NCBI GenBank assembly: GCA_009861545.1
Contig: VXME01000029.1
Location: forward strand, 306-64,305
DNA length: 64,000 bases
Origin: Acidobacteriota bacterium
GTDB taxonomy: Bacteria > Acidobacteriota > Vicinamibacteria > Vicinamibacterales > UBA8438
Direction: 5' to 3'
Below the pieces are notes generated by a model that did not search any database, was not told the DNA's origin, and worked only from the letters and a program-made list of their open reading frames with translations. The translations under genes and the position numbers were made by a program. This document shows, piece by piece, positions 13,906-43,992 of the stretch (position 1 is the first letter of the stretch; each line of letters opens with the position of its first letter).

Positions 13906-14949
13906 ATGCTGGAACGACTGCACGTACGTAATCTCCGCGGCTTCGGTGAGCTTCGGATCGACGAACTGGGCCGGATCAATCTCGTTGCCGGCCGAAACAA
14001 CGCGGGCAAGACCACTCTGCTGGAGGCGGTTTTTCTGCTCGGCGGAGCGGCTGACGGGCACATGGCGGTCAACCCCGACCTGCTCCGTGGCATCGATGCG
14101 GACGAAGTTCGGAGGTCGGAGACGTTCTGGAAGCCGCTGTTCTCCGATCTAGACACGGGCAGGGCACTCGTGATTTCCGGCGACCACTCGGTCGTCGGGC
14201 ACATCGAGCAGAGAATCACATGGGAGAGACCGATCTCGACGGAGGTCTTTCCCGGCAAGCACGACGGCGCATTGGCGGCGACCTCTTCCGGCGGACGTTC
14301 ACTCCGATTCAGGTACGTCGATCCGGTAGCCGGCGCGATCGAAAGTGAGGCACGGGAGGCGGGAAGAAAGGTGACCGTCGTTCGACAGGACCCGTACGTT
14401 CCATTTCCCCGAAGAATGCTCCTGCCGGGAAGCGGGCACCCGTACGCCGACGCCATGCTGCTGGGCCATTTGAGAAAGCAGAAGCGCGGAGATCTGCTCG
14501 TGGACGCCCTCCGCGTCGTCGATTCCAGGTTGCAGGGCATCGAGGACAATTCGTCCAGTGGCGAACCCATGATCTGGGTCGACATTGGGTTGCGGGAACT
14601 CGTGCCGTTGTCGATCCTGGGAGCGGGCATGACGCATGTCGCCCGTATCTTTCTGGTGATCGCGTCCACGCCGGGCGGCGTGGTGCTTGTCGATGAAATC
14701 GAGAACGGACTGCACCACTCCGTGCTGCCGGACGTATGGCGCGTGGTCGCGAAGGCTGCAGAGCAGTTCAACGTACAGGTATTCGGGACGACGCACAGTT
14801 TCGAGTGCATCGAAGCAGCACACGAGGCTCTCGGATCGGAGGGCTTTCGACTGCATCGCCTCGAAGTCATCGATGGCGAGAACCGCTGCGTGACGTTGAG
14901 TCCGTCTGCGATCAGCGGGGTGATTCGCCACAACATGGAAATCCGCTGA
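13906..14949 (+). CDS. ABC/SMC-type AAA ATPase (defence-associated, module A)
   Basis: Walker A AGRNNAGKTTLLEA, Walker B VVLVDEIENGLHH, H-loop GTTHS. N-terminal LHVRNLRGF motif typical of RecF/SMC-like heads. Confidence 0.8.
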   Translation: MLERLHVRNLRGFGELRIDELGRINLVAGRNNAGKTTLLEAVFLLGGAADGHMAVNPDLLRGIDADEVRRSETFWKPLFSDLDTGRALVISGDHSVVGHIEQRITWERPISTEVFPGKHDGALAATSSGGRSLRFRYVDPVAGAIESEAREAGRKVTVVRQDPYVPFPRRMLLPGSGHPYADAMLLGHLRKQKRGDLLVDALRVVDSRLQGIEDNSSSGEPMIWVDIGLRELVPLSILGAGMTHVARIFLVIASTPGGVVLVDEIENGLHHSVLPDVWRVVAKAAEQFNVQVFGTTHSFECIEAAHEALGSEGFRLHRLEVIDGENRCVTLSPSAISGVIRHNMEIR

Positions 14950-14951
14950 CC

Positions 14952-15605
14952 ATGGCGACCGAGCGTATCGAACGGGAGATTCAGCTCCTCGTGGAAGGCA
15001 GGGACGAGCGGAATTTCTTCGAGGCGCTCCTCGAGCACTTGCAGATCGCCGACGTTCAGCTTCAGGTCCTCGACGGCAAGGATCGACTACGGGAGTCTCT
15101 CGATACGCTTGCAGGGGCCACCGGTTTTCGAACGGTGAAGAGCATCGGCATCGTTCGTGACGCGGACGAGTCGGCTGTAGCTGCATTCCAGAGCATCCAG
15201 ACCTCGTTGAGGAATGCCAATCGGGTCGTCCGGACGTGGTCAGGCGTGGAATTCCCGGTGCCGGATCGTCCAAAGCAACGTGCCGGTGCGGGACCTTCTG
15301 TAAGCGCGTTGATATTGCCTGGCGACGGAGAGAATGGAATGCTCGAGACGCTGCTGTGCAGGACCTTCGCCGGTACCGAGATGGAGCGTTGCGTCGATGT
15401 CTTTCTGCAATGTGCCGAAGAGTCAGGCAGTCCCATTCACCGGCGCGACAAGTCGAGAGCGCACGCCTGGCTGGCGACCAGACAGGACCCGCACGTATCG
15501 GTGGGCGTGGCGGCGCAGAAGGACTACTGGGACTTCGACCACGAGGCGTTCGATGGCGTACGTCGATTTCTGAGGGCCTTGGCGCAGGAGCGGCCTGCGA
15601 CATAG
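14952..15605 (+). CDS. TOPRIM-like partner protein (DUF3226/DUF4276/DUF4435-like), module A
   Basis: ATG lies 2 nt after the ATPase stop. Motifs LLVEGRDERNFF (E-G-x-D-E) and IGIVRDADES (DxD) resemble OLD-type TOPRIM. The family name is taken from motif memory only. Confidence 0.6.
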   Translation: MATERIEREIQLLVEGRDERNFFEALLEHLQIADVQLQVLDGKDRLRESLDTLAGATGFRTVKSIGIVRDADESAVAAFQSIQTSLRNANRVVRTWSGVEFPVPDRPKQRAGAGPSVSALILPGDGENGMLETLLCRTFAGTEMERCVDVFLQCAEESGSPIHRRDKSRAHAWLATRQDPHVSVGVAAQKDYWDFDHEAFDGVRRFLRALAQERPAT

Positions 15606-15705
15606 AGACGGGCGCGCCCCGGCGACGTACATGTTGCGGAGCGTGCTGACGTTCGGCAGGGCACCGGCAGTGCTCCGTGGCGACTGTCGCGGCACTGGCG
15701 TCCTC

Positions 15706-16293
15706 TCAGGGCCACAGGTCGCCGAGGCTGAAGGTGATCGCATCGAAGGGGCGGATGCACACCGGATCGGCGTCCTTGGCCGTCGCGATCAGCACCCAGT
15801 GCCCTTCACGCATCTCGAACGCCTCTAGGGTGCGGTCCGCCGGGTCCACGAGCCATAGGTGTCCCACTCCTTCGCGGGCATAGATCGGACGCTTGCCATG
15901 CAGGTCGAGTTTGCGCGTCGAAGCGGAGAGCACTTCGCACACCCAATCCGGGGCCAAGGCGACGTAGGCCGCGTCGGGATAGTCGGGCATCCGCTTCCGG
16001 CGCCACCCTGCCAGGTCCGGCACCAGGACGTCCTCGCCAAAATGCAGCTCGGGCTCGTCGATGATCCACCACCCGCCCGGACCGCCGCGGCCCCTGTCGA
16101 AGGGTCCCGTGAGCTCGCCGCCCAGACGGGAGCTCGCAAGCGCATGCGGCATGGCGGGCCGCGGTTGGGTGTGCAGGGTCCCATCGACGATTTCGGCCAC
16201 TCGATGCGCGGGGGCGTCGAGCACGTCCTGGTAGGTGGCTCGCGCGGGCGCTTCGGACTTGTCGCGCCGGGCCGCGGTGCCGGCGCCGTTCAT
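15706..16293 (-). CDS. Uma2 (DUF820) family endonuclease
   Basis: PD-(D/E)xK-like motifs typical of Uma2: EIVDGTLH, VPDLAGW, APDWVCEVLS.STRK.D...K...YA..GV...WLVDP. Start set at MNGAG (16293). Confidence 0.8.
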   Translation of the reverse strand: MNGAGTAARRDKSEAPARATYQDVLDAPAHRVAEIVDGTLHTQPRPAMPHALASSRLGGELTGPFDRGRGGPGGWWIIDEPELHFGEDVLVPDLAGWRRKRMPDYPDAAYVALAPDWVCEVLSASTRKLDLHGKRPIYAREGVGHLWLVDPADRTLEAFEMREGHWVLIATAKDADPVCIRPFDAITFSLGDLWP

Positions 16294-16483
16294 CGCCCTC
16301 TCCTTCGCGCCAGCCGGGGATGACGGACAGTGCACATGTTGAGGACGGCGCGGAATGCCCGCTTGCGGGCGAGTCCGCTTCCCTGCATGAGAGTCAGCTT
16401 ACCCGATGGGTGACGGCAGGCGTAATCGGACCCCGGCACGGTGGCGGTGTCGTCGAACCCGCGGACGCGGCGAATCCTTGACG

Positions 16484-23972: not shown

Positions 23973-25085
23973 ATGGTGACGAGACTCTATGTCGACAATT
24001 TCCGGTGCCTGGTCAACTTCGAGTTGAAGCTCGACGAGACGAACATTCTTCTTGGGCCCAACGGTAGCGGGAAGACCTCGGTCCTGGATGTCCTGCGCCG
24101 AATCCGGGATCTCGTTGCGCGGGGAGTCAGAACCCGCGAGGCTTTCCAGGTAGGCGACCTCTCTCTGCTACAGAAGCGTAGCGAGCAGCGTTTCGAGCTC
24201 GACTTGCAAATCGCCGGGAGCGCCTACCGCTACGCCCTGTGCATCCAGCCTGCCGGCGATCGCAGCGGGATGCAGCTTAGCGAGGAGATACTTGAGCACA
24301 ACGGCAGACCAATCCTGGTGTTTCAGGAAGGCACCCTGCGACTGTACGACGACGACGGCGCCCAGACACCTTCGTTTCCTGTCGAATTGGGAGGATCCGG
24401 CGTCGGCCTCGTGAGGACGAGCTCAAGCACCCGGAGACTGAATGACTTCAGGCAGGTGATGGCAGGTCTTGTCATTGCGGGACCGTGTCCGCCACTCTTC
24501 AGGTCCGAGACGACGAGCGAGGACGAGTATCTCGAACCATTGATGCAGAACTTCGTGGCCTGGTACAGATACGCCGCGCAGGAGAACATGGGTGCCATTG
24601 CAGGCTTATTTGGCGCGCTTGGCGAGGCACTTCCAGGATTCGAATCCATGGACTTGGCCGAATCGGGAGAGAATACCCGTGCGCTCAAGGTGGCGTTTCG
24701 TAGACCGACTGACGAACGCGGGGTGGACCGCTACGGTTTCGGTCAGCTTTCCGACGGTCAACGGATGCTCATCGCGTTGTATTGTCTCGTCTTCTTGTCG
24801 ACGAACCGCCGCGTGTCACTGTTCCTCGACGAACCGGACAACTATCTCGCCCTTCGAGAGGTTCAACCATGGCTCGCCGAGGTCGTTGGGCGTTGTGGAA
24901 GTGTGCTTGATCAGGCAGTGGTAGCCTCTCATCATCCCGTAACGATAGATTACATGGCCGGCGCGAAGGGCAGGTGGTTCTACCGGGACGGGAACGGCCC
25001 GGTGCGGGTCGGCAACGAGCCGCAAACAACGGGCGATGGCATCTCGCTGTCGGAGACAGTCGCACGAGGCTGGGACCGAGAGTGA
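23973..25085 (+). CDS. ABC/SMC-type AAA ATPase (defence-associated, module B)
   Basis: Walker A LGPNGSGKTSVLD, ABC-signature-like QLSDGQRML, Walker B SLFLDEPDNYLAL, H-loop VASHHP. N-terminal LYVDNFRCL motif. Confidence 0.8.
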   Translation: MVTRLYVDNFRCLVNFELKLDETNILLGPNGSGKTSVLDVLRRIRDLVARGVRTREAFQVGDLSLLQKRSEQRFELDLQIAGSAYRYALCIQPAGDRSGMQLSEEILEHNGRPILVFQEGTLRLYDDDGAQTPSFPVELGGSGVGLVRTSSSTRRLNDFRQVMAGLVIAGPCPPLFRSETTSEDEYLEPLMQNFVAWYRYAAQENMGAIAGLFGALGEALPGFESMDLAESGENTRALKVAFRRPTDERGVDRYGFGQLSDGQRMLIALYCLVFLSTNRRVSLFLDEPDNYLALREVQPWLAEVVGRCGSVLDQAVVASHHPVTIDYMAGAKGRWFYRDGNGPVRVGNEPQTTGDGISLSETVARGWDRE

Positions 25086-25615
25086 GCGGAGTCAGCATCA
25101 CACTCCTCTGCGAGGACTTGCAGACGGATGCGTTCGTGCGCCGGTTCCTGAGGCACCGCAACTTCCGCGGCCGGGACATCCGTACGCTCCCCCTTCCCGG
25201 CGGTCGCCAGTCGGGCGAGCAATGGGTTCGCGAACGCTATCCGACGGAACTGCGAGCAATTCGCAGAAGGCAGGGCGTCTACCTGATAGTTGTAACGGAC
25301 GCGGACACCCATTCGACAGCGGTTCGACGTGCGCAGTTGGACGCGGCGTGCGACGAGAAGGAGACTCGGAGAAGAGACGACAATGAGCCGGTTCTCGTGA
25401 TTGTGCCGCGGAGGAACATCGAGACGTGGCTGGCGTTTCTCGGCGGAATGACGGTCGATGAGGACACGAAGTACCGGAAGCTGAAGCGCGAGGGAGACTG
25501 CGTCGCTCAGGCGGACGCCCTGTTCAGGATGTGTCACGAGGTGCAGAGGCTCGACGAAGGTGCTCCGCCTTCGCTACGAGAGGCATGCGAGGAGTACCCC
25601 AAGCTCCAGCGGTAG
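25082..25615 (+). CDS. TOPRIM-like/DUF4276-like partner protein, module B
   Basis: GTG at 25082 overlaps the ATPase stop (GTGA). Motifs ITLLCEDLQTDAFV, LIVVTDADTH and NIETWLAF are shared with the other partner proteins in this window. Confidence 0.6.
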   Translation: MSGVSITLLCEDLQTDAFVRRFLRHRNFRGRDIRTLPLPGGRQSGEQWVRERYPTELRAIRRRQGVYLIVVTDADTHSTAVRRAQLDAACDEKETRRRDDNEPVLVIVPRRNIETWLAFLGGMTVDEDTKYRKLKREGDCVAQADALFRMCHEVQRLDEGAPPSLREACEEYPKLQR

Positions 25616-32478: not shown

Positions 32479-33086
32479 CGGTGTCGGCCGCGGTGACCGT
32501 CTCTGCGGCGGTTGAGGGAAGCCTCGACGAAGCGGTCGTTGACCGGCTCATCCGTCACGTCGGAGGGCATCCCGGCACGGTCTACGGCAAGAACGGCAAG
32601 CCGTTTCTCAGAGACCGGATCCGCGGCTACAACAACGCCGCGCATCACGCTCCGTGGGTCGTGCTCGTCGACCTCGACACGGAAGGAGAATGCGCACCGT
32701 CAGTACGTGACGCGTGGTTGCGGCAGCCCGCTCCGCGGATGTGCTTTCGAGTCGTCGTACGAGCGATCGAGGCGTGGCTCATGGCGGACGCGGAGCGGCT
32801 GGCGGCCTTCATCGGGGTCGCGCGGAGCAGGGTGACCGCGGACCCCGAGGGGTTGGACCATCCCAAACAGACCATGGTCAACCTGGCGCGTCTGTCGCGT
32901 CGCCGCGATGTTCGCCGGGACATGGTCCCGCGCCAGGGGAGCGGCCGGACCGAGGGATCGGCCTACGCGTCGCGGCTGATCGAGTACGCTACCGACCGCT
33001 GGCGGCCGGACGTGGCCGTCCTACGTGCGGACAGCCTGCGGCGCGCTGTCGCGTGTCTGCAACGGCTGAGTAGCGAGGACGCCTGA
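32475..33086 (+). CDS. DUF4276-like TOPRIM-like partner protein, module C
   Basis: GTG at 32475 overlaps the ATPase stop (GTGA). Motifs AAVEGSLDEAVV, VVLVDLDTE and AIEAWLMAD. Confidence 0.6.
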   Translation: MTVSAAVTVSAAVEGSLDEAVVDRLIRHVGGHPGTVYGKNGKPFLRDRIRGYNNAAHHAPWVVLVDLDTEGECAPSVRDAWLRQPAPRMCFRVVVRAIEAWLMADAERLAAFIGVARSRVTADPEGLDHPKQTMVNLARLSRRRDVRRDMVPRQGSGRTEGSAYASRLIEYATDRWRPDVAVLRADSLRRAVACLQRLSSEDA

Positions 33087-33100
33087 CACGAGAGGGTGCG

Positions 33101-35206
33101 ATGCACGAGGTGAAGTCGATCCAGGACCTGCTGAATCAGATCAGCCGCGACGAGATCCTGCTGCCCGAGTTCCAGCGCGGCTACGTCTGGAACCGCGATC
33201 AGGTGCGCGGGCTGATGCAGTCGCTCTACCGCAAGCATCCGACTGGCCATCTGCTGATCTGGCGCACGTACAAGCCGTCGCTGGTTCGCGGCGGCGAGGC
33301 GGCGCGCGACGGGCATTCGTTGTTGTTGCTCGACGGACAACAGCGCCTGACGACGCTCTACGTGCTGTTCAAGGGCGAGGCGCCGCGGTTCTACGAGGGT
33401 GAGTCGCTGTTCTTCGATCTGCACTTCAACATGCAGACCGAGGAGTTCCGCTTCTGGCAGAAGTCGCGCATGGAGAACAACCCGGCGTGGATCGGCGTCC
33501 ACGAGTTCCTGCAGGAGGGACTGACCGCTCTGCTCGAACGGTTGGAACAGATCGACGAGGAGCGGCGCAGAGTCATCCAGCAGAACTTAGCTCGGCTGGG
33601 TCGCTTGAATAGCGTCCGCGACTATACCTACACCGTCGATCAGGTGTCGGGCGACCACTACAGCGTCGAGCAGGTTGTCGACATCTTCAACCGGGTCAAC
33701 AGCAGAGGGACGCCTCTCACGAGGGCCGACCTCGCCCTGGCGTACGTTTGCAGCCTTTGGCCGGAGGCCCGGGCAGAGTTGCGCACTTTCAGCGGCAAGA
33801 TGGCGGAGCGCGGCTTCGCTGTCGACCTGAATTTCCTCGTGCGCTGTCTGGCGGCCGCCGCGACCGGCTCGGTGCTGTTGGAAGGGTCCTTTCTGAAGAC
33901 TCCTGCGCCGACGTTGCAGGACGCCTGGGAGAAGATGCAACCGGCGTTCGAGCATTTGGTGAGTGTCCTGCGCCAGGAGGCGTTCATCGGTGGTCTCGAC
34001 GACCTGCCGACCAATTTCGTGCTGATTCCAGCCACCATCTACCTGGCGCGCCAGGGCGGCCAGTTTCCGAGCGACGCGATCCGGCGGCGCTTCCTCCGCT
34101 GGATCTTCCTCGCCGGGCTATGGGCCCGTTATTCGGGTTCGACCGATACCAAGCTCCAGCAGGACGTGGCGCTGGTGTCTGGGCGCGACCTGGACCCGAC
34201 GCACGAGTTGGAAGCGGCGATTCTCCGTGAGCGCGGGCGAGTCACCCTGCAGGAAGGGGACCTGGAGCGCGCCCGCATCGACTCATCGGTCGCGCGCCTG
34301 AGCCGGATCGTGGCGCGGCATCGAGACGCTCGGGACTGGTTCACGGGCTTGCGCATCTACGACTCGGTGACCGGCAAGAACCTGGGCGAAGAGCGACACC
34401 ACATCTTCCCCAGACGGGTGCTCGAAAAGGCCGGATTCGACGATACGACACGGATCAACGCCGTGGCCAACCGGGCCATTCTCGGGCAGCGGGCCCCGAA
34501 GGAGTACCAGGGGATGTCGCCCGCAGAGTATCTCCCGGAGGTCGACGAGCATCAGCCAAGCGCCTTGCGAGCGCAGTCGGTGCCGATGGACCGCGCACTC
34601 TGGCAGCCCGAGCGCTTCCTCGATTTCCTGGCGGCCCGCCGGCGTCTGCTGGCCGAGGCGATGAACGAGTTCATCGCCGGGTGGCTCCCGGAGAAGGAGG
34701 CGGACCCCGAGCAACACGTGCGCGCGCTGATCGCCGTCGGCGAAAGTGAGACGCTGGAGTTCAAGTCGAGCCTGCGCTGGGACCATCGTGAGGAGCGGGT
34801 CAACAAGGCGCTCGAAGGGGTGGTGGTCAAGACGCTCGCCGGATTCCTGAACGCGGCGGGCGGCACGCTCCTCATCGGCGTCGACGACGGCGGTGCACTC
34901 GTCGGACTCGCGGCGGACTATGCAACGCTCAATAAGCAGGATCGCGACGGGTTCGAACTCCACCTGCAGAACGTCCTCGCCCGCGATCTCGGCGAGGCTG
35001 CATCATCGTCGTTCTTGACCGTGAACTTCCACGAGATCGACGGGCAGGATATCTGCCAGGTTACGGTGGAGCCGAGCGACCATGCGATCTACGTGGAGTA
35101 CAAGAACGAAGCAATCCTCTATCTGCGCGTCGGCAATCTGACCCGGCCGCTTCCCGTCAAAGAGGCCGTCCAGTACGTCGGGCGCCACTGGGGGAAGACG
35201 GCGTGA
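33101..35206 (+). CDS. DUF262 (ParB-like nuclease/NTPase) - DUF1524-like His-Me finger - AlbA_2 (Schlafen-like) fusion; GmrSD-like type IV restriction candidate
   Basis: N-terminal LPEFQRGYVW...LLLDGQQRLTTL (DUF262). Mid-region FNRVNSRGTPLTRADL. ERHHIFPRRVL...NAVANRAIL (HNH/His-Me, DUF1524-type). C-terminal ESETLEFKSSLRWD...GFLNAAGGTLLIGVDDGG (AlbA_2-type). Confidence 0.8.
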   Translation: MHEVKSIQDLLNQISRDEILLPEFQRGYVWNRDQVRGLMQSLYRKHPTGHLLIWRTYKPSLVRGGEAARDGHSLLLLDGQQRLTTLYVLFKGEAPRFYEGESLFFDLHFNMQTEEFRFWQKSRMENNPAWIGVHEFLQEGLTALLERLEQIDEERRRVIQQNLARLGRLNSVRDYTYTVDQVSGDHYSVEQVVDIFNRVNSRGTPLTRADLALAYVCSLWPEARAELRTFSGKMAERGFAVDLNFLVRCLAAAATGSVLLEGSFLKTPAPTLQDAWEKMQPAFEHLVSVLRQEAFIGGLDDLPTNFVLIPATIYLARQGGQFPSDAIRRRFLRWIFLAGLWARYSGSTDTKLQQDVALVSGRDLDPTHELEAAILRERGRVTLQEGDLERARIDSSVARLSRIVARHRDARDWFTGLRIYDSVTGKNLGEERHHIFPRRVLEKAGFDDTTRINAVANRAILGQRAPKEYQGMSPAEYLPEVDEHQPSALRAQSVPMDRALWQPERFLDFLAARRRLLAEAMNEFIAGWLPEKEADPEQHVRALIAVGESETLEFKSSLRWDHREERVNKALEGVVVKTLAGFLNAAGGTLLIGVDDGGALVGLAADYATLNKQDRDGFELHLQNVLARDLGEAASSSFLTVNFHEIDGQDICQVTVEPSDHAIYVEYKNEAILYLRVGNLTRPLPVKEAVQYVGRHWGKTA

Positions 35207-38200
35207 TCCCGCGCGAGTGCAAGCGCCTCGCGGAGGTGGACTTCCCGATCTCCGTGGTGTCGAAGCACGCGGCGCGGGAGAAGTCCATCCGGCACGGGCA
35301 TCCCTCGACGCTGCACTTGTGGTGGGCGCGCCGACCACTCGCGTCGAGCCGGGCCGTGCTATTGGCCCTGTTGTTGCCGGACCCGTGTGATTCCCGTTGC
35401 CCGGAGGAGTTCAAGTGGAAGGCGAGGGAGATTCTGAGCGCTGTGCGGCAGCCGCCCGCGAACGACGTGGAGCTGCGGAGGGCGCTTCTGTGGTTCATCG
35501 GAACGTTCGCCAACTGGGACATGGCGGCGCATCCGACCTACCTGCAAGTGGGGCGCAACCTTGTGCGGACGGCGCACGGGGAGGAGGCCCCGTTGGTGGT
35601 GGATCCGTTCGCGGGCGGCGGGTCGATTCCGCTGGAGGCGCTCCGGCTCGGCTGCGAGGCGTTCGCGAGCGACCTGAACCCCGTGGCGTGTCTGATCCTC
35701 AAGGTCATGCTGGAGGACATCCCGCGCCACGGGCCGAAGCTGGCCGATGAGTTGCGTCGTGTCGGTGGCGAGATCAAGGCCGCGGCGGAAAAGGAACTGG
35801 CCGACCTTTATCCGGCGGACCCGGACGGTGCGACACCGATAGCCTATCTTTGGGCGCGGACGGTGCGGTGCGAGGCGCCGAATTGCGGAGCCGAGATCCC
35901 CTTGATGCGGTCGTTCTGGTTGTGCAAGAAGGGCCGGCGCAAGCGGGCGTTGCGACCCCACGTCGTGCGCGCTGAGGACGAGTTGCCGCGGGTCGAGTTC
36001 GAGATCTTCGAGCCGCGTGCGGACAAGGATGTGGGCGCGGGCACCGTGGCGCGTGCGAAGGCCACCTGTGTGTGTTGCGGCGCGGTGAAGCCGCCGGAGC
36101 GCGTTCGGGCGCAACTCGCGGCACGACGGGGCGGAGCGGACGTCATCTTAGACGAGCAGGGTCGCCGCACGGGCGGCGCGTTTCTGGTTGCCGTGGTCAC
36201 GCTGAAACAGGACGAAACGGGACGCCAGTACCGACTGCCGACCGAGCGGGACTACGAGGCAGTAGGCAAGGCGCAGTCACGAGTGGCCGGGGTCCTCGAC
36301 GAGTGGGAACGCAACAGGCGCGGTCTTTGCCCGGTTCCTGATGAACCGCTTCCCTCCATAGGCACGCTCGGCTTTCGCGTTCAGCGCTACGGCATGCTCC
36401 GATGGGGGGATCTGTTCACGGCGCGACAGAAGATGGCACTGTTCCTTCATGCCCGTTTGTGCGACTCCATTCCCGATGACGAGCGCCTAAAGCGGTGTAT
36501 CGGACTGTCGCTAAGCGGCGTTGCAGACAGAAACGTTTCGCTGGCCACGTGGCGACCCCAAGCGGATCAAGAGAAAGTCGAACACTTGTTCACAAGACAT
36601 GCCCTTCCTATGGCATGGGACTTCGGCGAGGCCGTTCCGCTGAGTGATTCCACCGGTAGCTTCGGTGACAGACTGGGCGTCCTCGTCAGGACAGTTTCAG
36701 CGATGGCGGAGAACGGTCAAGCAGAGTATGCCGCAACCTCGACTCAGGCCGCCGACGCCACCAACCACCCTCTCCCCGACGAAACCGCCGGGGTCTGGTT
36801 TACCGATCCGCCCTACTACGACGCTATTCCTTACTCCGATCTCTCGGACTTCTTCCTCGTCTGGCTCCGGCGCGCCCTGCCCGACCAGCCGTTGCTGCGC
36901 GATCCGTTTGATGCCGGCAACCCGCTGTCGCCGAAGACAGCCGAGGCAGTGCAGGACGAAACTAAGGAAGTCCACGGAAGACCGAAGGACCGCATGTGGT
37001 TCGAGGAGACGATGGCCCGCGTGTTCGCGGAGGGCCGCCGCTTGCTTCGCGAAGACGGCGTAGGCTCCATCGTCTTCGCGCACAAGACCACCGAGGGCTG
37101 GGAGGCGCTTCTCTCCGGCATGATTCGAGGTGGCTGGACCATCACCGGATCGTGGCCCATAGCCACGGAGATGGGCTCAAGGCTGCGCGCGCGCGACTCC
37201 GCTGCCCTCGCCACAAGCATCCACTTGATCTGTCGACCGCGTCCAGAAGACGCGAGGACTGGTGACTGGGCGGAAGTTCTGCGCGAGCTGCCCCGGCGAG
37301 TCGGGGAATGGATGGAGCGTTTGCAGGACGAGGGTGTTCGAGGTGCGGACCTCGTATTCGCCTGTATCGGACCGGCACTGGAGATTTTCAGCCGCTATTC
37401 ACGAGTCGAGACCGCGGATGGAAGTGAGGTGACGCTGCCGGAGTACCTGGAAAAGGTCTGGGAGGTCGTCGGCCGCACGGCGCTAGAGAACGTCCTCGGC
37501 GCAGCGGAAGCGAAGGCCCGCAACGGCCTTGCCGGCGCGCTTGAAGAGGACGCGAGACTGACGGCCCTCTTCCTCTGGACGCTCCAGGCGACCACCGACG
37601 AAGGGACCCAAGACTCCGCTGATGACGACGGTGCGCCGGGCGACGCCGAGGACGAATCAGAACACGGCGGGTCCGCCGACAAGGCGAAGGGTTTCTCTCT
37701 GGTCTTCGACGTCGTGCGACGCTTCGCCCAGCCGCTGGGCATCGATCTCCCGAAGTGGGAGAAACGCACCATCGAGACGAAGAAGGGTGTGGTTCGCCTG
37801 CTGCCTGTGGCTGAGCGGGCGAAGCAGCTTTTCGGCGAGCGCGGGGCGCAGGACGTCGCGGCGTGGCTGGAACAGGAGGAGGCAACCGGAACCGACGCGC
37901 TACAGGGCGTGCTGTTTCCGGACCGACAGGAGAGAATCGGGTCCGCCGTCAGAGAGCGGCGACCGCGGTACGGCGATGCCGACAACGTGTCGGACGAACG
38001 TACCGGCACGACGACGCTCGACCGGGTCCACACGGGGATGTTGCTCCAAGCCGGCGGGCGCACCAACGCGTTGCGGGCGCTTGTACAGGCGGAGCAGGAG
38101 CGCGGCCCCGACTTCCTGCGCTTGTCGAACGCCCTTTCCGCGCTGTATCCGCGTGGCAGCGAGGAGAAGCGCCTGCTCGACGCGATGCTCCTGGCGGTTC

Positions 38201-38208
38201 CGAAATAG
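35203..38208 (+). CDS. DUF1156 domain DNA methyltransferase with Zn ribbon (DPPY motif IV)
   Basis: N-terminal hallmark EVDFPISVVSKHAAREKSIRHGHPSTLHLWWARRPLASSRA. SAM-binding VVDPFAGGGSIPLEA. Cys pairs CEAPNCG...CVCCG. Catalytic FTDPPYYD. GTG at 35203 overlaps the upstream stop (GTGA). Confidence 0.85.
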   Translation: MIPRECKRLAEVDFPISVVSKHAAREKSIRHGHPSTLHLWWARRPLASSRAVLLALLLPDPCDSRCPEEFKWKAREILSAVRQPPANDVELRRALLWFIGTFANWDMAAHPTYLQVGRNLVRTAHGEEAPLVVDPFAGGGSIPLEALRLGCEAFASDLNPVACLILKVMLEDIPRHGPKLADELRRVGGEIKAAAEKELADLYPADPDGATPIAYLWARTVRCEAPNCGAEIPLMRSFWLCKKGRRKRALRPHVVRAEDELPRVEFEIFEPRADKDVGAGTVARAKATCVCCGAVKPPERVRAQLAARRGGADVILDEQGRRTGGAFLVAVVTLKQDETGRQYRLPTERDYEAVGKAQSRVAGVLDEWERNRRGLCPVPDEPLPSIGTLGFRVQRYGMLRWGDLFTARQKMALFLHARLCDSIPDDERLKRCIGLSLSGVADRNVSLATWRPQADQEKVEHLFTRHALPMAWDFGEAVPLSDSTGSFGDRLGVLVRTVSAMAENGQAEYAATSTQAADATNHPLPDETAGVWFTDPPYYDAIPYSDLSDFFLVWLRRALPDQPLLRDPFDAGNPLSPKTAEAVQDETKEVHGRPKDRMWFEETMARVFAEGRRLLREDGVGSIVFAHKTTEGWEALLSGMIRGGWTITGSWPIATEMGSRLRARDSAALATSIHLICRPRPEDARTGDWAEVLRELPRRVGEWMERLQDEGVRGADLVFACIGPALEIFSRYSRVETADGSEVTLPEYLEKVWEVVGRTALENVLGAAEAKARNGLAGALEEDARLTALFLWTLQATTDEGTQDSADDDGAPGDAEDESEHGGSADKAKGFSLVFDVVRRFAQPLGIDLPKWEKRTIETKKGVVRLLPVAERAKQLFGERGAQDVAAWLEQEEATGTDALQGVLFPDRQERIGSAVRERRPRYGDADNVSDERTGTTTLDRVHTGMLLQAGGRTNALRALVQAEQERGPDFLRLSNALSALYPRGSEEKRLLDAMLLAVPK

Positions 38209-38234
38209 ACGCCACTGTGACTCGAGGTAATGCC

Positions 38235-39599
38235 ATGGAACAGATTCGGTTGAAGAACTTCCGTTGCTTTCGGGAGGCCCAGGCCGCACGGCTCGCCCCA
38301 CTTACCCTACTCGTAGGTGAGAACAGCACGGGCAAGACGTCGTTCATGGCTCTTATCCGGGCGCTATGGGACGTTGCGCATCGGCGTGCCGTTCCTGGCT
38401 TCAAGGAACCTCCTTACGACCTTGGCAGCTTCGACGAGATGGCCCATTATCGCAAGGGGAAAACCGGCCGGGCCGTGAGTTTCGAGGCGGGGTTTGATGT
38501 GACTCCCCTTGCGAGTTCCGGACAGGATCGAGAAAAAGACGCCGCCGGCCGGCTACATCACTTCGATGTGACGTTTTCGAGAAGAGGGACCATTCCGATT
38601 CCGTCCAAGTGGCGGCTTGCTTGCGAGGATGTATGGATCGAGGAGCGTCTCAACAAGGACTCGTCCCGGTGGATTCACTTCGGAACAGCGAACGGCGAAT
38701 GGCGCCGGAAGGTGCCGGCTGACGTCGAGGCGGGCATTCCTGCCGATTTTCAGATCGTGACATCGTTGTCATGGTACCTGACAACAGCGCCTCATGGAAA
38801 TACCGACATCCAGCCGTTGGCTGACTCTCCATCGATCTCCGAACAGGACCGAGGACGAATCAATCGGCTCGTTCTTGGCTCTGGCCTCCACGGTTTTTTT
38901 CTTACGGAGCAACGGCCCTTCGCTAGCGCGCCTGTTCGCTCCAAGCCGCGCCGGACGTATGATCCCTCGCGGCCTTCGAGGGAGCCTGAAGGAGAAAACG
39001 TTCCAATGTATCTTTCCACGGCGTTCTTCGAGGACAAGAAGTCGTGGGCGGCACTAAAGAACGCGCTTGAGGAGTTTGGACACGATGCGGGGCTGTTCGA
39101 CGAGATCTCGGTCAGGCCCTTGGGAAAGAGAGGGAGCGAACCATTTCAGATGCACGTACGGAAATTCGGAAGACGAGCCAAGGGGCCGATGCGCAACCTG
39201 ATCGACGTCGGCTACGGCGTCAGTCAGGTACTGCCAGTTGTTACCGAGCTGTTCCGGGACAACGAAACACCCATATTCCTCCTGCAGCAGCCAGAGGTGC
39301 ATCTTCATCCTAGCGCCCAGGCCGCCCTCGGAAGCCTCTTCTGCAGGATCGCCGAAGAGCACCGGCAGGTGGTGGTCGAGACGCATAGCGATCACCTGCT
39401 CGACCGGGTGCGCATGGACGTGCGTGATGGTAGGCCAAGGTTGAAGCCCGAGGATGTGTCGATCCTCTTCTTCGAGCGTAGCGATCTGGATGTCAGGATC
39501 CACTCGCTCCGTCTAGATCGGCAAGGTAACATTCTGGACGCGCCGCCGAGTTATCGGCGTTTCTTCATGAACGAGACGCGACGGTCACTGGGGCTCTGA
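38235..39599 (+). CDS. ABC-type AAA ATPase (DUF3696-like C-terminus), module D
   Basis: Walker A VGENSTGKTSFMAL, Walker B IFLLQQPEVHLHP, H-loop VVVETHSDHLLDRV. N-terminal IRLKNFRCF. Visibly less GC-rich than its flanks. Confidence 0.8.
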   Translation: MEQIRLKNFRCFREAQAARLAPLTLLVGENSTGKTSFMALIRALWDVAHRRAVPGFKEPPYDLGSFDEMAHYRKGKTGRAVSFEAGFDVTPLASSGQDREKDAAGRLHHFDVTFSRRGTIPIPSKWRLACEDVWIEERLNKDSSRWIHFGTANGEWRRKVPADVEAGIPADFQIVTSLSWYLTTAPHGNTDIQPLADSPSISEQDRGRINRLVLGSGLHGFFLTEQRPFASAPVRSKPRRTYDPSRPSREPEGENVPMYLSTAFFEDKKSWAALKNALEEFGHDAGLFDEISVRPLGKRGSEPFQMHVRKFGRRAKGPMRNLIDVGYGVSQVLPVVTELFRDNETPIFLLQQPEVHLHPSAQAALGSLFCRIAEEHRQVVVETHSDHLLDRVRMDVRDGRPRLKPEDVSILFFERSDLDVRIHSLRLDRQGNILDAPPSYRRFFMNETRRSLGL

Positions 39600-39601
39600 C
39601 G

Positions 39602-40069
39602 ATGTGCGCCATTCTGGACAACAGCGTCGTGCACGAGGTGTTTGGAGACAGGCGGTCGCCAGCGGGCGAGGCGTTCTTCAGGTGGATCAGTGTCGGGGGT
39701 GGGCGTCTGATCGGCGGCGGCAGATTGCTCAGAGAGCTTGCACGGAACGAGAACTTCTGGTTCTGGTGGCGAGAGGCAGTGCTCGCAGGACTGGCGACAC
39801 GCTTGGGCGACGGCACGGTGGAGGAGGAGACGACTCGATTGGTCGAGCGGGAGGCATGCCAATCGAACGATGAACATGTCGTCGCTCTGGCCGTGGTCGG
39901 CGGAGCTCGGTTACTGTACTCGAACGACAAGAAGCTGCAGCGTGACTTCAAGAACAGGCATCTGGTCAATCATCCGCCTGGAAGGGTGTATTCCACGCGT
40001 CGTAGCGGCGCCTTCACGCGAAAGAAGAGGGAGCTCCTTGCAGGGAGTTCTTGCAGGATAGCCCCATGA
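39602..40069 (+). CDS. PIN-like nuclease domain protein (putative), module D partner
   Basis: ATG lies 2 nt after the ATPase stop. Acidic positions are arranged as in PIN folds (AILDNSVV...; SNDEHVVALA; LLYSNDKKLQRDF). Assignment is tentative. Confidence 0.45.
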   Translation: MCAILDNSVVHEVFGDRRSPAGEAFFRWISVGGGRLIGGGRLLRELARNENFWFWWREAVLAGLATRLGDGTVEEETTRLVEREACQSNDEHVVALAVVGGARLLYSNDKKLQRDFKNRHLVNHPPGRVYSTRRSGAFTRKKRELLAGSSCRIAP

Positions 40070-40085
40070 AGTCGCTGTCGAGTTA

Positions 40086-40766
40086 GATGCCCGTGCGGGG
40101 CCACGCGTTCGAGGCGTTCTCGTTTCCGGCCGGCGGTCTGCCGACGCTTCTGAATCAACCGGACGCGCGGTTCTTTCTGGAAGTCGACCTCTCCGTTGGG
40201 TAGGAGCGGTGCCGTGTCGCGTGGAACCGAGGATCGAGCTCGGGTCGGGACGGCTCAGCGGGGCTGACGAGTACCTCGCACTCGTAGGGCGTACGGGCAA
40301 TCCGAAGGGGATCCCGGCCATCGAACGCGTCGATTCCAAACTCCACGTGCGACGCAAGGGGAGGCCGGCGCATCCGCGACAGGAGCCGGTCGGCATGAAT
40401 CACGCAATCCTGTCGGATCGCAGTCTCGCCGGCGACGAATAACGCTGGCTGGAAGCCGTGCGCGACGAACTCGGCGACTGTTGCACGCATTTTCTCGGTT
40501 CAGGCCTGGAGATGCGCGCGTCACGGCCCCCGGCCGACGTTTTTTCGATGCGGTCTGCATGGAGAGAGCATCGGACCCTTCCTGTACAAGCTGCGGGCCG
40601 AGCGGGCCGACGAGCCGAAACGCTTCGCGGCCGCCTCCCGCACGCTCCGGACTATCGTCCCGAGCGTGGAATCGCTGGCCGTTCAACTCGACGAGCGCCG
40701 CGGCACGCTCGGACGGAGGACGACCTGTTCGAGAACCTGCTGCTGCGGGGTCTGATCGACGAGTGA
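40086..40766 (+). pseudogene. Truncated, frameshifted copy of the module-E ABC ATPase gene
   Basis: Nucleotide and peptide similarity to 42300..42925 plus 43320..43370 (VRGHAFEAFSFPAGGLP; IELGSGRLSGADEYLAL...PAHPRQEPVGMNHAILSDRSLAGDE; LFENLLLRGLIDE*). It lacks Walker A. It is interrupted by TAG/TAA stops and frame changes, and has an internal deletion of the Walker B/H-loop region. Confidence 0.85.
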
Positions 40767-40835
40767 TCCGACAGAGGTCGACCAGAAGACGGGCTGCCGC
40801 AGAACAGTGGCGACCAGAATACGACGTTATAGATA

Positions 40836-42055
40836 ATGGTCGGCATGCAGGCACAGGATCGCGTATACGATGCGCTGCTGGCCGACCACTTCGCGATCAA
40901 CCGGCAGATGGTCTTCGTCAGCGGGCCGCGGCAGGTCGGCAAGACCACCACGTGCCGGCGTCACGCGGACGCGTACTGCAACTGGGACAACCTCGACGAC
41001 CGGGGGGAGCTCGTTCTCGCGGGGCCGGCCCGGCTCGCGGCCCGCTTGGGCGCGACCCGGTTGTCCGCAACGAGGCCGTTGTTCCTCTTCGACGAGCTGC
41101 ACAAGTTTCCGCGCTGGAAGCCGTTCCTGAAGGGGCTGTACGATACGTACGTGGATCGGCTGCGCATCATCGTCACCGGGAGCAGCCGTCTGGACGTCTA
41201 CCGCCGCGGCGGCGACAGCCTGATGGGGCGGTACTTCGCGTATCGGATGCCATCTGTTCTCGGTTGCGGAGACGTTGTGCCGTGATCTTCCGGATCCGGA
41301 ACGGATCGTTCGTTCTCCTCGGTCGATCGATTCGACCGAGCTCGATGCGCTCTGGACGCACGGCGGCTACCCGGAACCGTTCCGCAAGCGGGCCGCCCGC
41401 TTCAGGCGGCGCGGCGGTCGTTGCGCCTCCGGCAACTGGTCCGGGTGGACGTCCGCGACCTGACGCGGGTGCAGCAGATCGACCAACAGGAGGTACTGGT
41501 TCGCTTGTTGTCGCACCGGTCGGGCCGCCAACTCGTGTACAGCACGCTCGCGCGGGAGACGCGGGTCGCGGTCGACACCGTCCGTCGCTGGGTCGCCGCT
41601 GTGCGACTTCCATCTCGGCTTCCTGGTCCGGCCCTGGTACCGCAACGTCTCGCGATCGCTGCGCAAGGAGCCGAAGCGGTTACCTGCGGGACTGGGCCGA
41701 CATCGAGGACGCCGGCGCTCGATCGGAGACGTTCGTCGCGTGTCATCTGCTCAAGGCGGTGGACGGCTGGAACGACATGGGGCTCGGCCGGTTCGAGCTG
41801 GGGTACCTGCGCGACAAGGACAGGCGGGAGGTGGCTTTCGTGGTCGCGCGCGACGGTGAGCCGTGGTTTCTCGCCAAGGTCAAGCACCGCGAAACTAGCC
41901 CGGGTCCGGCGCTCGCACACTTTCAGCGCTAGGTCGGGGCGCCGTTCGCGTTCCACGTCGTGGTAGATGCCGACTACTTGGACGCGGACTGCTTCGCCGC
42001 GCCCGGTCCGCCGCTCGTGGTCCCGGCTCGGACCCTGTTGTCGCAGCTCGTATGA
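40836..42055 (+). pseudogene. AAA_14/DUF4143-type ATPase gene, multiply frameshifted
   Basis: The N-terminus is intact (VFVSGPRQVGKTT, LFLFDELHKFPRWK, IIVTGSSRLDVYRRGGDSLMGRYF). The recognisable continuation jumps between frames (LWTHGGYPEPF; VDVRDLTRVQQI; FLVRPWYRNVSRSLRKEPK; YLRDWADIED...EVAFVV). An in-frame TAG at 41930 is followed by the conserved tail (AFHVV...VVPARTLLSQLV). Confidence 0.8.
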
Positions 42056-42128
42056 GAAGATCCGTGCGACGCTGAGCGAGTCCACGCAGCCGACGAGGAG
42101 TTGCATGGCATGCCAGAGGTAGCAGGCG

Positions 42129-43370
42129 ATGCTGAAGAAGCTGACGGTCCGCAACTTCAAGTCGCTCATGGACGTGAGCGTGGAGTTTCCGTCCCTGGCG
42201 GTGCTCTTCGGACCGAACGCCGCTGGAAAAAGCAACCTGCTGGATGCCATCGCAGCACTGTCCTGGATCGGCAACGTGCGCACGCTCTCCGACGTGTTGG
42301 ATCGGCCGCTGCCGGTACGGGGCCACGCCTTCGAGGCGTTCTCGTTCCCGGCAGGAGGTCTGCCGGCCCTGCTGAAGCAACAGACCGCCCGGTTCTCGCT
42401 GGAAGCCGATCTCGCGGTGGAGGCCGAGCTGTACAGGTATCGCGTCGAGCCGAGCATCGAGTTGCGGTCAGGTCGTCTCAGCGTGGCCGACGAATACCTC
42501 GCCCTCCTAGGGAAGAACCGCAATCCGAAGGGAACGCCGGCGATCGAGCGGGTCGAATCGAGTCTCCGCGTGCGGCGCAAGGGGAAGCCGGCGCACCCGC
42601 GCCAGGAGCCGCTCGGCATGAATCACGCGATCCTCTCCGACCGGAGTCTTGCGGGCGACGAGTACCGCTGGCTGGAAGCTGTTCGCCTGGAACTGGGCGA
42701 GTGGTGCACGCACTATCTCGATCCGGGCCTAGCGATGCGCGCCCCGCGGGCCCCGGCCGATGTCTTCGATGTCGGTGTTCACGGGGAATACATCGGACCC
42801 TTCCTGTACAAGTTGCGAGCCGAGGAGCCGAAGCGCTTCGAGGCAGTCTCCCGCACGCTGCGCTCCATCGTTCCCAGCGTCGAGTCGCTGGCCGTGTATC
42901 TGGACGAGCGCCGCGGCACGCTGGACATTCTGATTCGTCAGGGGGGCGTGGAGTACTCGACTCGCATCGTTTCCGAGGGCACCCTTCGCGTGCTCGCCTT
43001 GTGCGCCATCGCCGTGAATCCGTGGGGAGGCTCTCTGGTCGCGTTCGAAGAGCCGGAGAACGGCGTCCACCCGCGGCGGCTCGATCTCATTGCCCGCCTC
43101 CTGATCTCGTTGGCATCGGACGGGGGGCGTCAGGTCATCGTGACGACCCACTCGCCGCTGTTCTGCGACGCCGTGCTGAAGCACGCGTCCTCCCTGCAGG
43201 GAGACGTCGGTCTCTTCAACGTTCGTCGTGTCGGGCAGGCCACGAGCATCGACCCTTTCGACCCAACCGGGCCGTTGTTCAAGGACAGCGAAATCGCGGC
43301 AGCACTCACGAGCAATGCCGAGGACGGTCTGTTCGAGAACCTGCTGCTGCGAGGCCTGATCGATGAGTGA
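42129..43370 (+). CDS. ABC/SMC-type AAA ATPase (defence-associated, module E)
   Basis: Walker A FGPNAAGKSNLLDA, signature-like VSEGTLRVLAL, Walker B LVAFEEPENGVHP, H-loop VTTHSP. N-terminal LTVRNFKSL. Confidence 0.8.
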   Translation: MLKKLTVRNFKSLMDVSVEFPSLAVLFGPNAAGKSNLLDAIAALSWIGNVRTLSDVLDRPLPVRGHAFEAFSFPAGGLPALLKQQTARFSLEADLAVEAELYRYRVEPSIELRSGRLSVADEYLALLGKNRNPKGTPAIERVESSLRVRRKGKPAHPRQEPLGMNHAILSDRSLAGDEYRWLEAVRLELGEWCTHYLDPGLAMRAPRAPADVFDVGVHGEYIGPFLYKLRAEEPKRFEAVSRTLRSIVPSVESLAVYLDERRGTLDILIRQGGVEYSTRIVSEGTLRVLALCAIAVNPWGGSLVAFEEPENGVHPRRLDLIARLLISLASDGGRQVIVTTHSPLFCDAVLKHASSLQGDVGLFNVRRVGQATSIDPFDPTGPLFKDSEIAAALTSNAEDGLFENLLLRGLIDE

Positions 43371-43992
43371 TTCCCTCGCTGTGGATCTCTTCGTCGAGGA
43401 CCTCGCTCATGAGGTGTTCGTCGGGGCGCTGGTCGACCGGATCGCCCGAGAAGAAGATGTCGCGTTGAGCCTCCAGGCTCGGTCGGCGCGTGGCGGTCAC
43501 CCGCGCGCGTTGGAGGAGTTCGGGACGTATCAGGTGTTGGTCGAGAAGGGGGCGCTCACGAAGCGCACACCGGATCTGGTGGTCGTCGTCATCGACGGCA
43601 ACTGCGCCACGCCTCGTAAGAAGAGGGAGGAGATCCGGAGGGTGACGAGGCCGGCGCTTCTGGACCGGGTTGTCACGGGTTGCCCGAACCCGCACGTCGA
43701 GCGCTGGTTTCTGGCGGATCCTGATTCGTTCCACAACGTGGTCGGCTATCAGCCGGTGGTCGGTCCCGAGAAGTGCGAGCGGGAACACTACAAGCGGATT
43801 CTGGCGGACGCGGTTCGCCGCGGGCAGCAGCCGGCGACGCTCAGCGGGATCGAGTTCGCGGCTGAGCTGGTGGAGGCGATGAATCTCTACCGGGCCGGCA
43901 GAAGGGACTCGTCATTGAGAGCTTTCGTGGGCGATCTTCGTGGACGTTTCCGCGAGATTCGGCGTCGAGAAGGAGTGGGGGGCGCCCAATGA
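43363..43992 (+). CDS. DUF4276-like partner protein, module E (DxD replaced by IDGN)
   Basis: ATG at 43363 overlaps the ATPase 3' end by 8 nt. Motifs DLFVEDLAHEVFV, VVVVIDGNC and HVERWFLAD align with the partners of modules B and C. Confidence 0.6.
   Translation: MSDSLAVDLFVEDLAHEVFVGALVDRIAREEDVALSLQARSARGGHPRALEEFGTYQVLVEKGALTKRTPDLVVVVIDGNCATPRKKREEIRRVTRPALLDRVVTGCPNPHVERWFLADPDSFHNVVGYQPVVGPEKCEREHYKRILADAVRRGQQPATLSGIEFAAELVEAMNLYRAGRRDSSLRAFVGDLRGRFREIRRREGVGGAQ

Follow-up and report, generated by a model that had tools for sequence, protein, structure and literature searches.

Hma systems, which were recently renamed 'Type-1 DUF499-centred BREX-related' by Rakesh & Krishnan (PMC12839542), often carry additional genes inside their operons. 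In the survey of Payne et al. (bioRxiv 10.1101/2024.01.29.577857), 62.7% of 1,485 Hma systems hold embedded genes, among which ABC ATPases are the commonest family, and the embedded ATPases are paired with a TOPRIM (HEC-01), NERD (HEC-02) or PIN (HEC-03) protein. HEC-03 protects E. coli and requires both of its genes, and the PDC systems, PDC-M38 among them, still count as untested candidates (10.1101/2024.01.29.577857). In a later study, protection of E. coli B by one representative of HEC-01 was reported (PMC12881386). Dyads of an OLD-ABC ATPase with a TOPRIM, PIN, HNH or REase protein, found in at least 1242 taxa, have been described as 'backup effectors' (PMC12839542). DUF4276 (Mad4 of MADS) and RloB are classed as Toprim-superfamily nucleases, and the Menshen ATPase NsnB has EN in place of the DE of Walker B (PMC12065111). 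Here we analyze a stretch of 64,000 nt from an Acidobacteriota bacterium (GCA_009861545.1; contig VXME01000029.1, positions 306 to 64,305), hereafter called the window, which contains five pairs of an ABC ATPase gene and a small partner gene, modules A to E. By analogy with the described systems, these modules are probably autonomous two-gene anti-phage pairs of already catalogued kinds. Three of them, C, D and E, lie within a single Hma operon, a setting that an earlier sequence-only reading of this DNA had missed.

All coordinates are window positions. The G+C content of the window is about 68%, at which long spurious open reading frames (ORFs) are common, and third-position GC (GC3) was therefore used to choose real genes. 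Defence assignments were made with PADLOC models and domain assignments with Pfam, whereas the MAD3 and RecF models with their curated cutoffs came from NCBIfam. AlphaFold (AF2) models of partners A and B were compared with the PDB by Foldseek, partner families were compared profile against profile by hhalign, and copies were compared with each other by tblastn and blastn. Homologous loci retrieved for comparison carry L-numbers (L001, L002 and so on). The five modules are as follows.

13906-14949 and 14952-15605, + strand: module A, ATPase of 347 aa and, after a 2-nt gap, partner of 217 aa
23973-25085 and 25082-25615, + strand: module B, ATPase of 370 aa and partner of 177 aa, joined by a GTGA overlap
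31321-32478 and 32475-33086, + strand: module C, ATPase of 385 aa and partner of 203 aa, joined by a GTGA overlap
38235-39599 and 39602-40069, + strand: module D, ATPase of 454 aa and, after a 2-nt gap, partner of 155 aa
42129-43370 and 43363-43992, + strand: module E, ATPase of 413 aa and partner of 209 aa, joined by an 8-nt overlap (ATGAGTGA)

Translation of these ORFs reproduced the five ATPases, their coupled partners of 155-217 aa and all the motifs that had been quoted for them. From A to E, the Walker A motifs are AGRNNAGKT, GPNGSGKT, GANASGKS, GENSTGKT and GPNAAGKS, the Walker B motifs are DEIENGLHH, DEPDNYLAL, EEPELSLHP, QQPEVHLHP and EEPENGVHP, and the H-loops are TTHS, SHHP, STHSP, ETHSD and TTHSP. 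The partner motifs are LLVEGRDE and IVRDAD in A; LLCEDLQTD, VVTDAD and IETWL in B; AAVEGSLDE, LVDLD and IEAWL in C; and LFVEDLAHE, IDGN and VERWF in E. Each of the five ATPases has a Pfam AAA_21/AAA_15 match (3e-13 to 4e-36) and an SMC_N-type N-terminus; they are of the ABC/OLD type, in support of the ABC/SMC type first proposed for them. This five-pair pattern is not due to chance. The GC3 of the module genes is 0.67-0.82, as compared with 0.83-0.93 in their neighbors. By tblastn, ATPases B, C and E are mutually 21-29% identical, ATPase D matches only ATPase C through two short stretches, and ATPase A has no match to the other four. The partners show no BLAST-level similarity among themselves. 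The copies are thus not recent duplicates, as the sequence-only reading had held. Its view that the pairs form a related but distinct family without a demonstrated function has to be given up, since they correspond to the PADLOC HEC-01, PDC-M38 and HEC-03-like types and are relatives of Mad3/Mad4 of MADS, and HEC-03 and one HEC-01 protect E. coli.

Based on its profile matches, pair C can be assigned firmly to HEC-01. In HEC-01, the gene of an ABC ATPase precedes that of a TOPRIM-like protein that is small and has an OLD-like metal site, typically between hma genes. Both models are matched by pair C from end to end: ATPase C matches PADLOC HEC-01A at 2e-154 and Pfam AAA_21 at 4.1e-36, and partner C matches HEC-01B at 6.1e-65. 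The NCBIfam MAD3 model also matches ATPase C (2.7e-21). Partner C carries the metal-site motifs VEGS and DLD, and its DUF4276 match (9.4e-5) is under the Pfam threshold. Pair E appears to be a divergent HEC-01/DUF4276 pair. ATPase E matches HEC-01A at 4.3e-48, AAA_21 at 4.5e-29 and, under its cutoff, MAD3 at 5.9e-34. Partner E matches DUF4276 at 1e-5 (under threshold) and HEC-01B at 2.7e-5, and most of its 392 homologs carry DUF4276 (PF14103) in precomputed annotation. Taken over the window, the HEC-01 ATPase profile is matched by C and E and remotely by B, and the HEC-01B profile is matched by C and marginally by E and B. Unlike typical HEC-01 members, partners E and B match HEC-01B weakly, B is not embedded, and the subfamily of partner E has DxN in place of DxD.

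The membership of partners C and E in DUF4276/HEC-01B, together with the published classification of DUF4276, predicts that both are TOPRIM proteins. The OLD-like metal-site residues, a Glu after strand 1 and a DxD after strand 3, are present in B and C, whereas partner E has D78-G-N80. Module E had been read as having lost the DxD, possibly as a non-catalytic variant. However, D78-G-N80 is kept throughout the 37 aligned members of its subfamily (54-86% identity to partner E), with E12-D13, D78, N80 and E113-R-W115 invariant and G79 nearly so. Since D78 and N80 are invariant, the DxN of partner E is not a product of decay. A direct sequence relationship was recovered as a faint signal in this group, with C against E at an E-value of 0.0016 and its motifs aligned, and B against E at 0.012 with three motifs in register, both at low probability; C against B was not significant (E 0.17). 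Searches of PDB sequences with partner A and with the family profiles of partners E and D gave nothing meaningful, so no partner family had a sequence-detectable relative of solved structure in these searches.

Module D represents a different type. ATPase D matches PADLOC NsnB at 2e-44, PDC-M55A at 3e-31 and a HEC-03B-named model at 3.4e-30 (residues 260-440 only), and its Pfam matches are AAA_15 at 1.6e-21 and a weak DUF3696 tail at 0.0015. Its partner has a Pfam PIN match of 0.009 and matched no PADLOC model. Many of the 378 homologs of partner D carry PF01850; the family keeps E45, D90 and D109 without exception, and D6 in at least 90% of cases. The PIN-like partner of the earlier description is therefore upheld, and the conserved D-E-D-D quartet predicts an active VapC-type PIN. 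On this evidence pair D has the HEC-03 architecture, an NsnB-like ATPase with an active-looking PIN. It resembles HEC-03 in that the ATPase is directly followed by a VapC-like PIN with its catalytic acids and that the pair is nested in an Hma or a restriction-modification (R-M) operon. It is unlike HEC-03 in that the PIN escapes the PADLOC models, so that the two HEC-03 profiles are not both matched, in that the ATPase is closer to NsnB, and in that its Walker B has QQ rather than DE. The QQ, in the sequence LLQQPE, is found in all eight D-type ATPases compared (L001, L002, L007, L008, L009, L022, L081 and the window), which are 57-65% identical. Walker A is kept in all eight, as GENSTGKT in seven and as GENSAGKT in L022.

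Menshen is composed of NsnA (DUF262), the ATPase NsnB and NsnC, an inactive PIN with an effector (PMC12065111). Module D shares with it the NsnB-like ATPase, the weak DUF3696 match, the PIN fold and a replaced Walker B DE, and a DUF262 protein with a weak NsnA match (1.1e-9) lies in the same operon. In contrast to Menshen, the DUF262 gene is cut off from ATPase D by a 3-kb methylase gene, hmaB, and the PIN, of 155 aa, keeps its D-E-D-D quartet and has no C-terminal effector. The two elements also occur independently: L001 and L007 have the D pair without a DUF262 gene, whereas L012, L038, L050 and L060 have the DUF262 gene without a D pair. Module D is therefore better described as a two-gene unit than as part of a Menshen triad, which we rejected. 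The D pair follows hmaB in the Vicinamibacterales relatives L002/L014, L007, L008, L009, L022 and L081, and in L001, where the neighborhood lacks a DUF262 gene, it forms the end of a type I R-M operon.

The Hma operon around modules C, D and E contains the following further elements.

27869-31303, + strand: HmaA, SNF2 helicase with a NOV_C (DUF3883) nuclease-like C-terminus (PADLOC HmaA 3e-168; Pfam Helicase_C, SNF2-rel_dom and NOV_C)
33101-35206, + strand: HEC-05/BrxU-like protein of 701 aa, GmrSD_N (DUF262) plus Schlafen AlbA_2 (Pfam 1.4e-31 and 1.2e-16)
35203-38208, + strand: HmaB, DUF1156 N6-adenine methyltransferase (PADLOC HmaB 6.7e-112; Pfam DUF1156 1.6e-22)
40088-40767, + strand: decayed E-type ATPase paralogue, the 'sixth ATPase' (blastn to ATPase E)
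40836-41932, + strand: frameshifted AAA_14/DUF4143 ATPase pseudogene (Pfam AAA_14 4.7e-21 on 40836-41285; DUF4143 0.0033 at the C-terminus of the 40481-41932 frame)
44168-44386 and 44383-44838, + strand: VapBC-like pair, ribbon-helix-helix (RHH) and PIN (Pfam RHH_1 2.1e-9; PIN-like translation)
44828-47635, + strand: HmaC, DUF499 ATPase (PADLOC HmaC 6.3e-100; Pfam DUF499 2.7e-11)

The defining components of Hma, an SNF2 helicase with a nuclease-like C-terminus, a DUF1156 methylase and a DUF499 ATPase, were thus found on one strand, with genes that mostly overlap or lie 14-26 nt apart. MANTIS (Gao_RL), which was considered as well, is a different, Type-2 BREX-related system. The VapBC-like pair overlaps the start of hmaC by 11 nt and is 89% conserved just before HmaC in L007. 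The GmrSD_N/AlbA_2 protein matches PADLOC HEC-05 at 1.1e-43 and PDC-M55C at 2.4e-26, in addition to the weak NsnA match. It carries a C-terminal AlbA_2 where BrxU/GmrSD would carry the DUF1524 nuclease domain, an architecture that is repeated in L002.

Among 60 related Hma loci, defined by the presence of all three core genes within range and examined with 10-kb flanks, ABC-ATPase ORFs between hma genes numbered none in 40, one in 13, two in four and three or more in three, counts that fragmented ORFs can inflate. All three of the heavily loaded loci are close relatives of the window genome. With three intact ATPases and one remnant, the window stands at the top of the range and is typical of its clade. 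The closest Hma relative is L007 (WTFV01000265.1, 10001-23018), in which HmaA and HmaC are 95-96% identical, HmaB is 81% identical and the D pair is 56-60% identical. The much lower conservation of HmaB and the D pair suggests that, within the operon, the methylase and the D pair are the variable core. Between hmaB and hmaC, L007 has the D ATPase together with two PINs, the E pair and a third pair, of AAA_21 with a canonical DUF4276 partner (4e-48), and these are followed by VapBC.

The decayed sixth ATPase that the sequence-only reading had mentioned corresponds to the E-type remnant at 40088-40767. By blastn it is 78.7% identical over 629 nt to 42310-42926 of ATPase E, and its last 52 nt are 90% identical to 43320-43371. 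The remnant is frameshifted, with its matches in several frames, and it lacks the Walker A region and, through an internal deletion, E residues ~266-394. The AAA_14/DUF4143 pseudogene was considered for the same role and rejected, because AAA_14 is not of the ABC type and the ABC-type remnant fits better. This pseudogene has a weak PDC-S01 match, and an intact version is found in the type I R-M operon of L001 (4025-5377). Just after partner E, at 44023-44065, there is a repeat with 86% identity to 43 nt in the 5' portion of the AAA_14 gene (40904-40946). Together with the E-type remnant, this repeat suggests an old duplication or recombination of a unit made of the E pair and AAA_14. The decayed E-type copy and the different third pair of L007 show that the contents of these slots turn over.

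Pair A is assigned to PDC-M38 by profile, in that a PDC-M38A ATPase and an adjoining PDC-M38B/DUF3226 protein, which define this type, are both found. ATPase A matches Pfam AAA_21 at 9.7e-16 and AAA_15 at 6.8e-14, and PADLOC AbiLi (9.7e-45) and PDC-M38A (1e-44) about equally. Partner A matches DUF3226 at 7.5e-29, with 101.5 bits against a cutoff of 27, and PDC-M38B at 2.2e-13. Unlike AbiL, it has no AbiLii match at E<=0.01, which places it in the DUF3226 rather than the AbiLii type. In an alignment of 62 sequences, taken from a full-library search with 2708 relatives, E15, D70 and E132 are invariant; of the 'DAD' motif the first Asp alone is invariant. A Foldseek comparison of the partner models with OLD TOPRIM domains had been suggested along with the original proposal. 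For partner A, modeled at a mean pLDDT (predicted local distance difference test) of 95.1, the five best PDB matches are all OLD nuclease C-terminal TOPRIM regions, with E-values of 9.4e-4 to 4.6e-3 and probabilities of 0.97-1.0, led by 6njx (E 9.4e-4) and including 6nk8_B (template modeling (TM) scores 0.49/0.52). Retron Eco2 comes next below OLD, and the PARIS complex is 20th. The model thus predicts a TOPRIM-like fold for partner A.

Homologs of the ATPase+DUF3226 pair are matched by 129 plasmid records, on tiny ColRNAI (ColE1-type) plasmids of Klebsiella, Escherichia and Salmonella. In the 4.2-kb Klebsiella plasmids (L087 = NZ_CP053780.1, 4167 bp), the pair is the sole evident cargo besides Rop and a helix-turn-helix gene. 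The top match to partner A in the representative library, P0361 (443 aa), is about twice its length with two matching stretches and resembles a DUF3226 tandem or fusion. No mention of DUF3226 was found in the literature searched. Module A lies between a Na/Ca exchanger gene and Uma2/PhzF. The Uma2-family gene directly beside it (15706-16335, - strand; Pfam 5.1e-21) encodes a putative restriction endonuclease that matches the PADLOC candidate PDC-S03 at 3.3e-16.

Module B contains an unclassified partner family. ATPase B matches Pfam AAA_21 at 3.3e-13, PADLOC HEC-01A at 2.3e-18 and mad3 at 6.3e-18; the NCBIfam MAD3 match (1.2e-14) is far under its cutoff. Its best full-length matches are the defence ATPases HEC-01A, mad3 and PDC-M25A. 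Partner B reaches only 1.7e-4 against PADLOC HEC-01B, and no Pfam domain was found in it or in any of its 557 homologs. The 120 homologs listed are 63-95% identical and nearly all of 174-199 aa, and E11-D12, D73-x-D75 and E114-T-W116 are invariant in the family. When 39 members were scanned singly, weak matches were obtained to HEC-01B in 33, mad4 in 20, DUF3226 in 10 and DUF4276 in six, with weak PDC-M38B and AbiLii matches and little else. Since these matches, though weak, are consistent, pair B may be a remote branch bridging the two Pfam families. The AF2 model of partner B (pLDDT 86.9) has a b-a-b-a-b-a-b-a core, with E11 after b1 and D73xD75 after b3. Of the four partners that had been described as TOPRIM-like proteins of the DUF4276/DUF3226 type, A is supported as DUF3226 with OLD TOPRIM structural matches and C and E as DUF4276/HEC-01B, whereas B fits as a remote relative of both Pfam families.

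Module B lies between a PQQ dehydrogenase gene and ogt/ada-alkA, and it is syntenic in L003/L004. The pair is kept as a unit in the unrelated contexts of L005 and L006; in L005 it is found among unrelated genes beside a HicB antitoxin. Comparison of L003 (6892-8531) with window positions 23973-25615 showed flanks that are 92-99% identical with a synonymous divergence (dS) of 0.08-0.26, whereas the B ATPase is 68% and the partner 78% identical, with dS of 1.04 and 0.56. The ratio of nonsynonymous to synonymous divergence (dN/dS) is 0.21-0.26. These values indicate an old, deeply diverged B allele that occupies the same chromosomal slot under purifying selection, rather than a case of positive selection in situ. 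The rest of the window outside the modules and the Hma operon consists of housekeeping genes, and modules A and B stand alone among them as insertions with a lower GC3.

The resemblance to other ATPase-nuclease systems is more distant. PARIS is composed of AriA and the DUF4435 TOPRIM protein AriB (PMC11464382) and shares with the modules an OLD-family ABC ATPase with a TOPRIM; AriA matches all five ATPases, from 6.1e-14 (B) to 5.2e-34 (C). However, the HEC-01A, PDC-M38A and NsnB matches are far stronger than those to AriA, and no partner matches AriB or DUF4435 in Pfam or PADLOC. The absence of viral copies of partners A and C in the phage collection and of E in IMG/VR also gives no indication of a PARIS-like phage-satellite lifestyle. 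OLD provides the best structural matches to partner A, through its TOPRIM regions. The modules differ from OLD and Gabija in that the ATPase and the TOPRIM are separate coupled genes, whereas they are fused in OLD and GajA, and no UvrD-type (GajB) helicase was found beside any of the five pairs. As to MADS, Mad3 is an AAA_21-type ATPase and Mad4 a DUF4276 protein, in keeping with the mad3/MAD3 matches of ATPases B, C and E and the mad4 matches of the B-partner family. Unlike MADS, the NCBIfam MAD3 scores reach 54-118 bits against a cutoff of 420, and the methylase is of the HmaB DUF1156 type (HmaB matches mad2 at 5e-5 only).

Several findings weigh against the reading of all five modules as functional anti-phage pairs. 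HEC-01 gave no protection in the E. coli screen of Payne et al. (10.1101/2024.01.29.577857). The QQ that takes the place of the Walker B Asp and the catalytic Glu suggests nucleotide binding without normal hydrolysis, so that ATPase D may not hydrolyse ATP. With the DxN of partner E, and with only the first Asp of DxD kept in DUF3226, the metal chemistry of these partners may differ from that of OLD. Foldseek of the partner B model gave no PDB match at E<=1e-3; OLD 6nk8_A ranked fifth (E 0.065, TM 0.39) among lumazine synthases and generic a/b folds. The faint profile-profile links among the partners did not extend to the DUF3226 partner, for which hhalign of A against B and of A against E was not significant even with the 62-sequence profile (E 0.045-0.29 against the other partners). 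Modules A and B are both flanked by housekeeping, not defence, genes. The phage collection held no homologs of partner A or partner C, and a profile scan of IMG/VR found no relatives of the partner E family.

If the modules are anti-phage pairs, a working scheme may be drawn by analogy with PARIS AriA/AriB and HEC-03. An ATPase oligomer would keep the nuclease inactive until it detects a cue from a phage; plausibly, this cue would be a phage protein directed against the methylation-based system around the pair. The ATPase would then free or activate the nuclease. The effector would be a member of the TOPRIM-like DUF3226/DUF4276/Mad4 group in A, B, C and E and a PIN RNase-type protein in D; by cutting tRNA or other RNA (PIN, possibly TOPRIM) or DNA, it would abort the infection. 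The nested copies would serve as back-ups for the Hma system. That the pairs are self-contained can be seen from the D pair in an R-M operon, the B pair in unrelated contexts and the ATPase+DUF3226 pair on tiny plasmids. The low GC3, the dS of the B allele and the changed slots of L007 are signs of acquisition and turnover.

The autonomy of the nested pairs would be in doubt if C, D and E were integral accessory subunits of Hma, for example a nuclease arm working only with the hma genes, as Mad3 and Mad4 are among the eight MADS genes. The three pairs are on the same strand as the hma genes with 14-26-nt or overlapping junctions, the D and E pairs keep the same positions in the Vicinamibacterales loci L002/L014, L007, L009 and L081, ATPases C and E match MAD3, and the nucleases within Type-1 BR loci may be compensatory (Rakesh & Krishnan, PMC12839542). 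We nevertheless consider an integral role unlikely. No ABC ATPase lies between the hma genes in 40 of the 60 related loci, HmaA retains a NOV_C nuclease-like domain of its own, a type I R-M operon also carries the D pair and homologous pair types stand alone elsewhere, the MAD3 scores are far under the 420-bit cutoff, and HEC-03 protected when cloned alone. Alternatively, the pairs might be toxin-antitoxin-like addiction modules that keep the island or plasmid stable; the nuclease would be the toxin and the ATPase its neutraliser, with no dedicated immune sensing. The Pfam name of AAA_21 is 'putative AbiEii toxin, Type IV TA system' (TA for toxin-antitoxin), the PIN partner resembles VapC toxins, a true VapBC pair is present in the same operon, and tiny non-mobilizable plasmids have an ATPase+DUF3226 pair as their main cargo. 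Such a role is very unlikely in view of the phage-specific protection given by the relatives HEC-03 and HEC-01 and of the systematic nesting of the pairs in DNA-modification defence operons; it is also not mutually exclusive with abortive infection and in part overlaps the anti-phage reading.

For module B, the neighborhood raises the idea of a housekeeping repair pair, a RecF-like ATPase with a RecR-like TOPRIM, tied to ogt and ada/alkA. The pair is directly beside ogt and ada-alkA in the window and in the syntenic L003/L004, and an ogt-like gene is 6 kb off in L006. The unusual conservation of the partner B family (in identity and length among the 120 listed homologs), the purifying selection expressed in its dN/dS and a RecF match at the N-terminus of ATPase B (9.8e-9) would also agree with a repair function. 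However, the RecF match covers only the P-loop region of about 40 residues, at 34.8 bits against a cutoff of 172, whereas the best full-length matches of ATPase B are to defence ATPases. In the comparison with L003, synonymous divergence is four to five times higher in the B genes than in their flanks, an excess that points to allele replacement rather than a vertically inherited repair gene. The GC3 of B is lower than that of its neighbors, and in L005 B is found among unrelated genes beside the HicB antitoxin. A repair pair is thus highly improbable, and module B is better read, with the other four, as an anti-phage pair.

Two side observations concern genes downstream of the operon. A patatin-like phospholipase gene (47712-49013, - strand; Pfam 1.8e-25) lies 76 nt downstream of hmaC and has a weak match to a PADLOC phospholipase 'Effector' (6.7e-11). 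A bacterial Ro60 orthologue is encoded at 54155-55897 on the + strand (TROVE 6.7e-39; Ro60 vWA 5.5e-59). The tRNA scan and the Rfam scan (at gathering thresholds) of the whole window were both empty, so that neither a Y-RNA-like nor any other Rfam family was found.

The pair positions may tentatively be viewed, at less than even chances, as fixed slots that exchange ancient alleles or cassettes by recombination. The nested dyads would then form a multi-sensor guard array, each watching a different phage counter-measure against Hma, with the QQ D-type ATPases as switches that respond to the nucleotide state without hydrolysis and control an active PIN RNase. The 'embedded' or 'backup effector' arrangement inside Hma is already known; the E-type remnant, the invariant DxN, the conserved QQ and B as an ancient allele are new. 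Since the module types and their Hma/BREX-like embedding have been published, the current picture of these systems is unchanged. Of remaining interest are the unclassified B family, the DxN DUF4276 subfamily, the QQ ATPase with an active-looking PIN and the turnover of the slots. The locus is a compact case of layered immunity, with three ABC ATPase-nuclease modules, a GmrSD-like enzyme and a toxin-antitoxin pair in one BREX-related operon, and its remnants point to cassettes that have been replaced over time.

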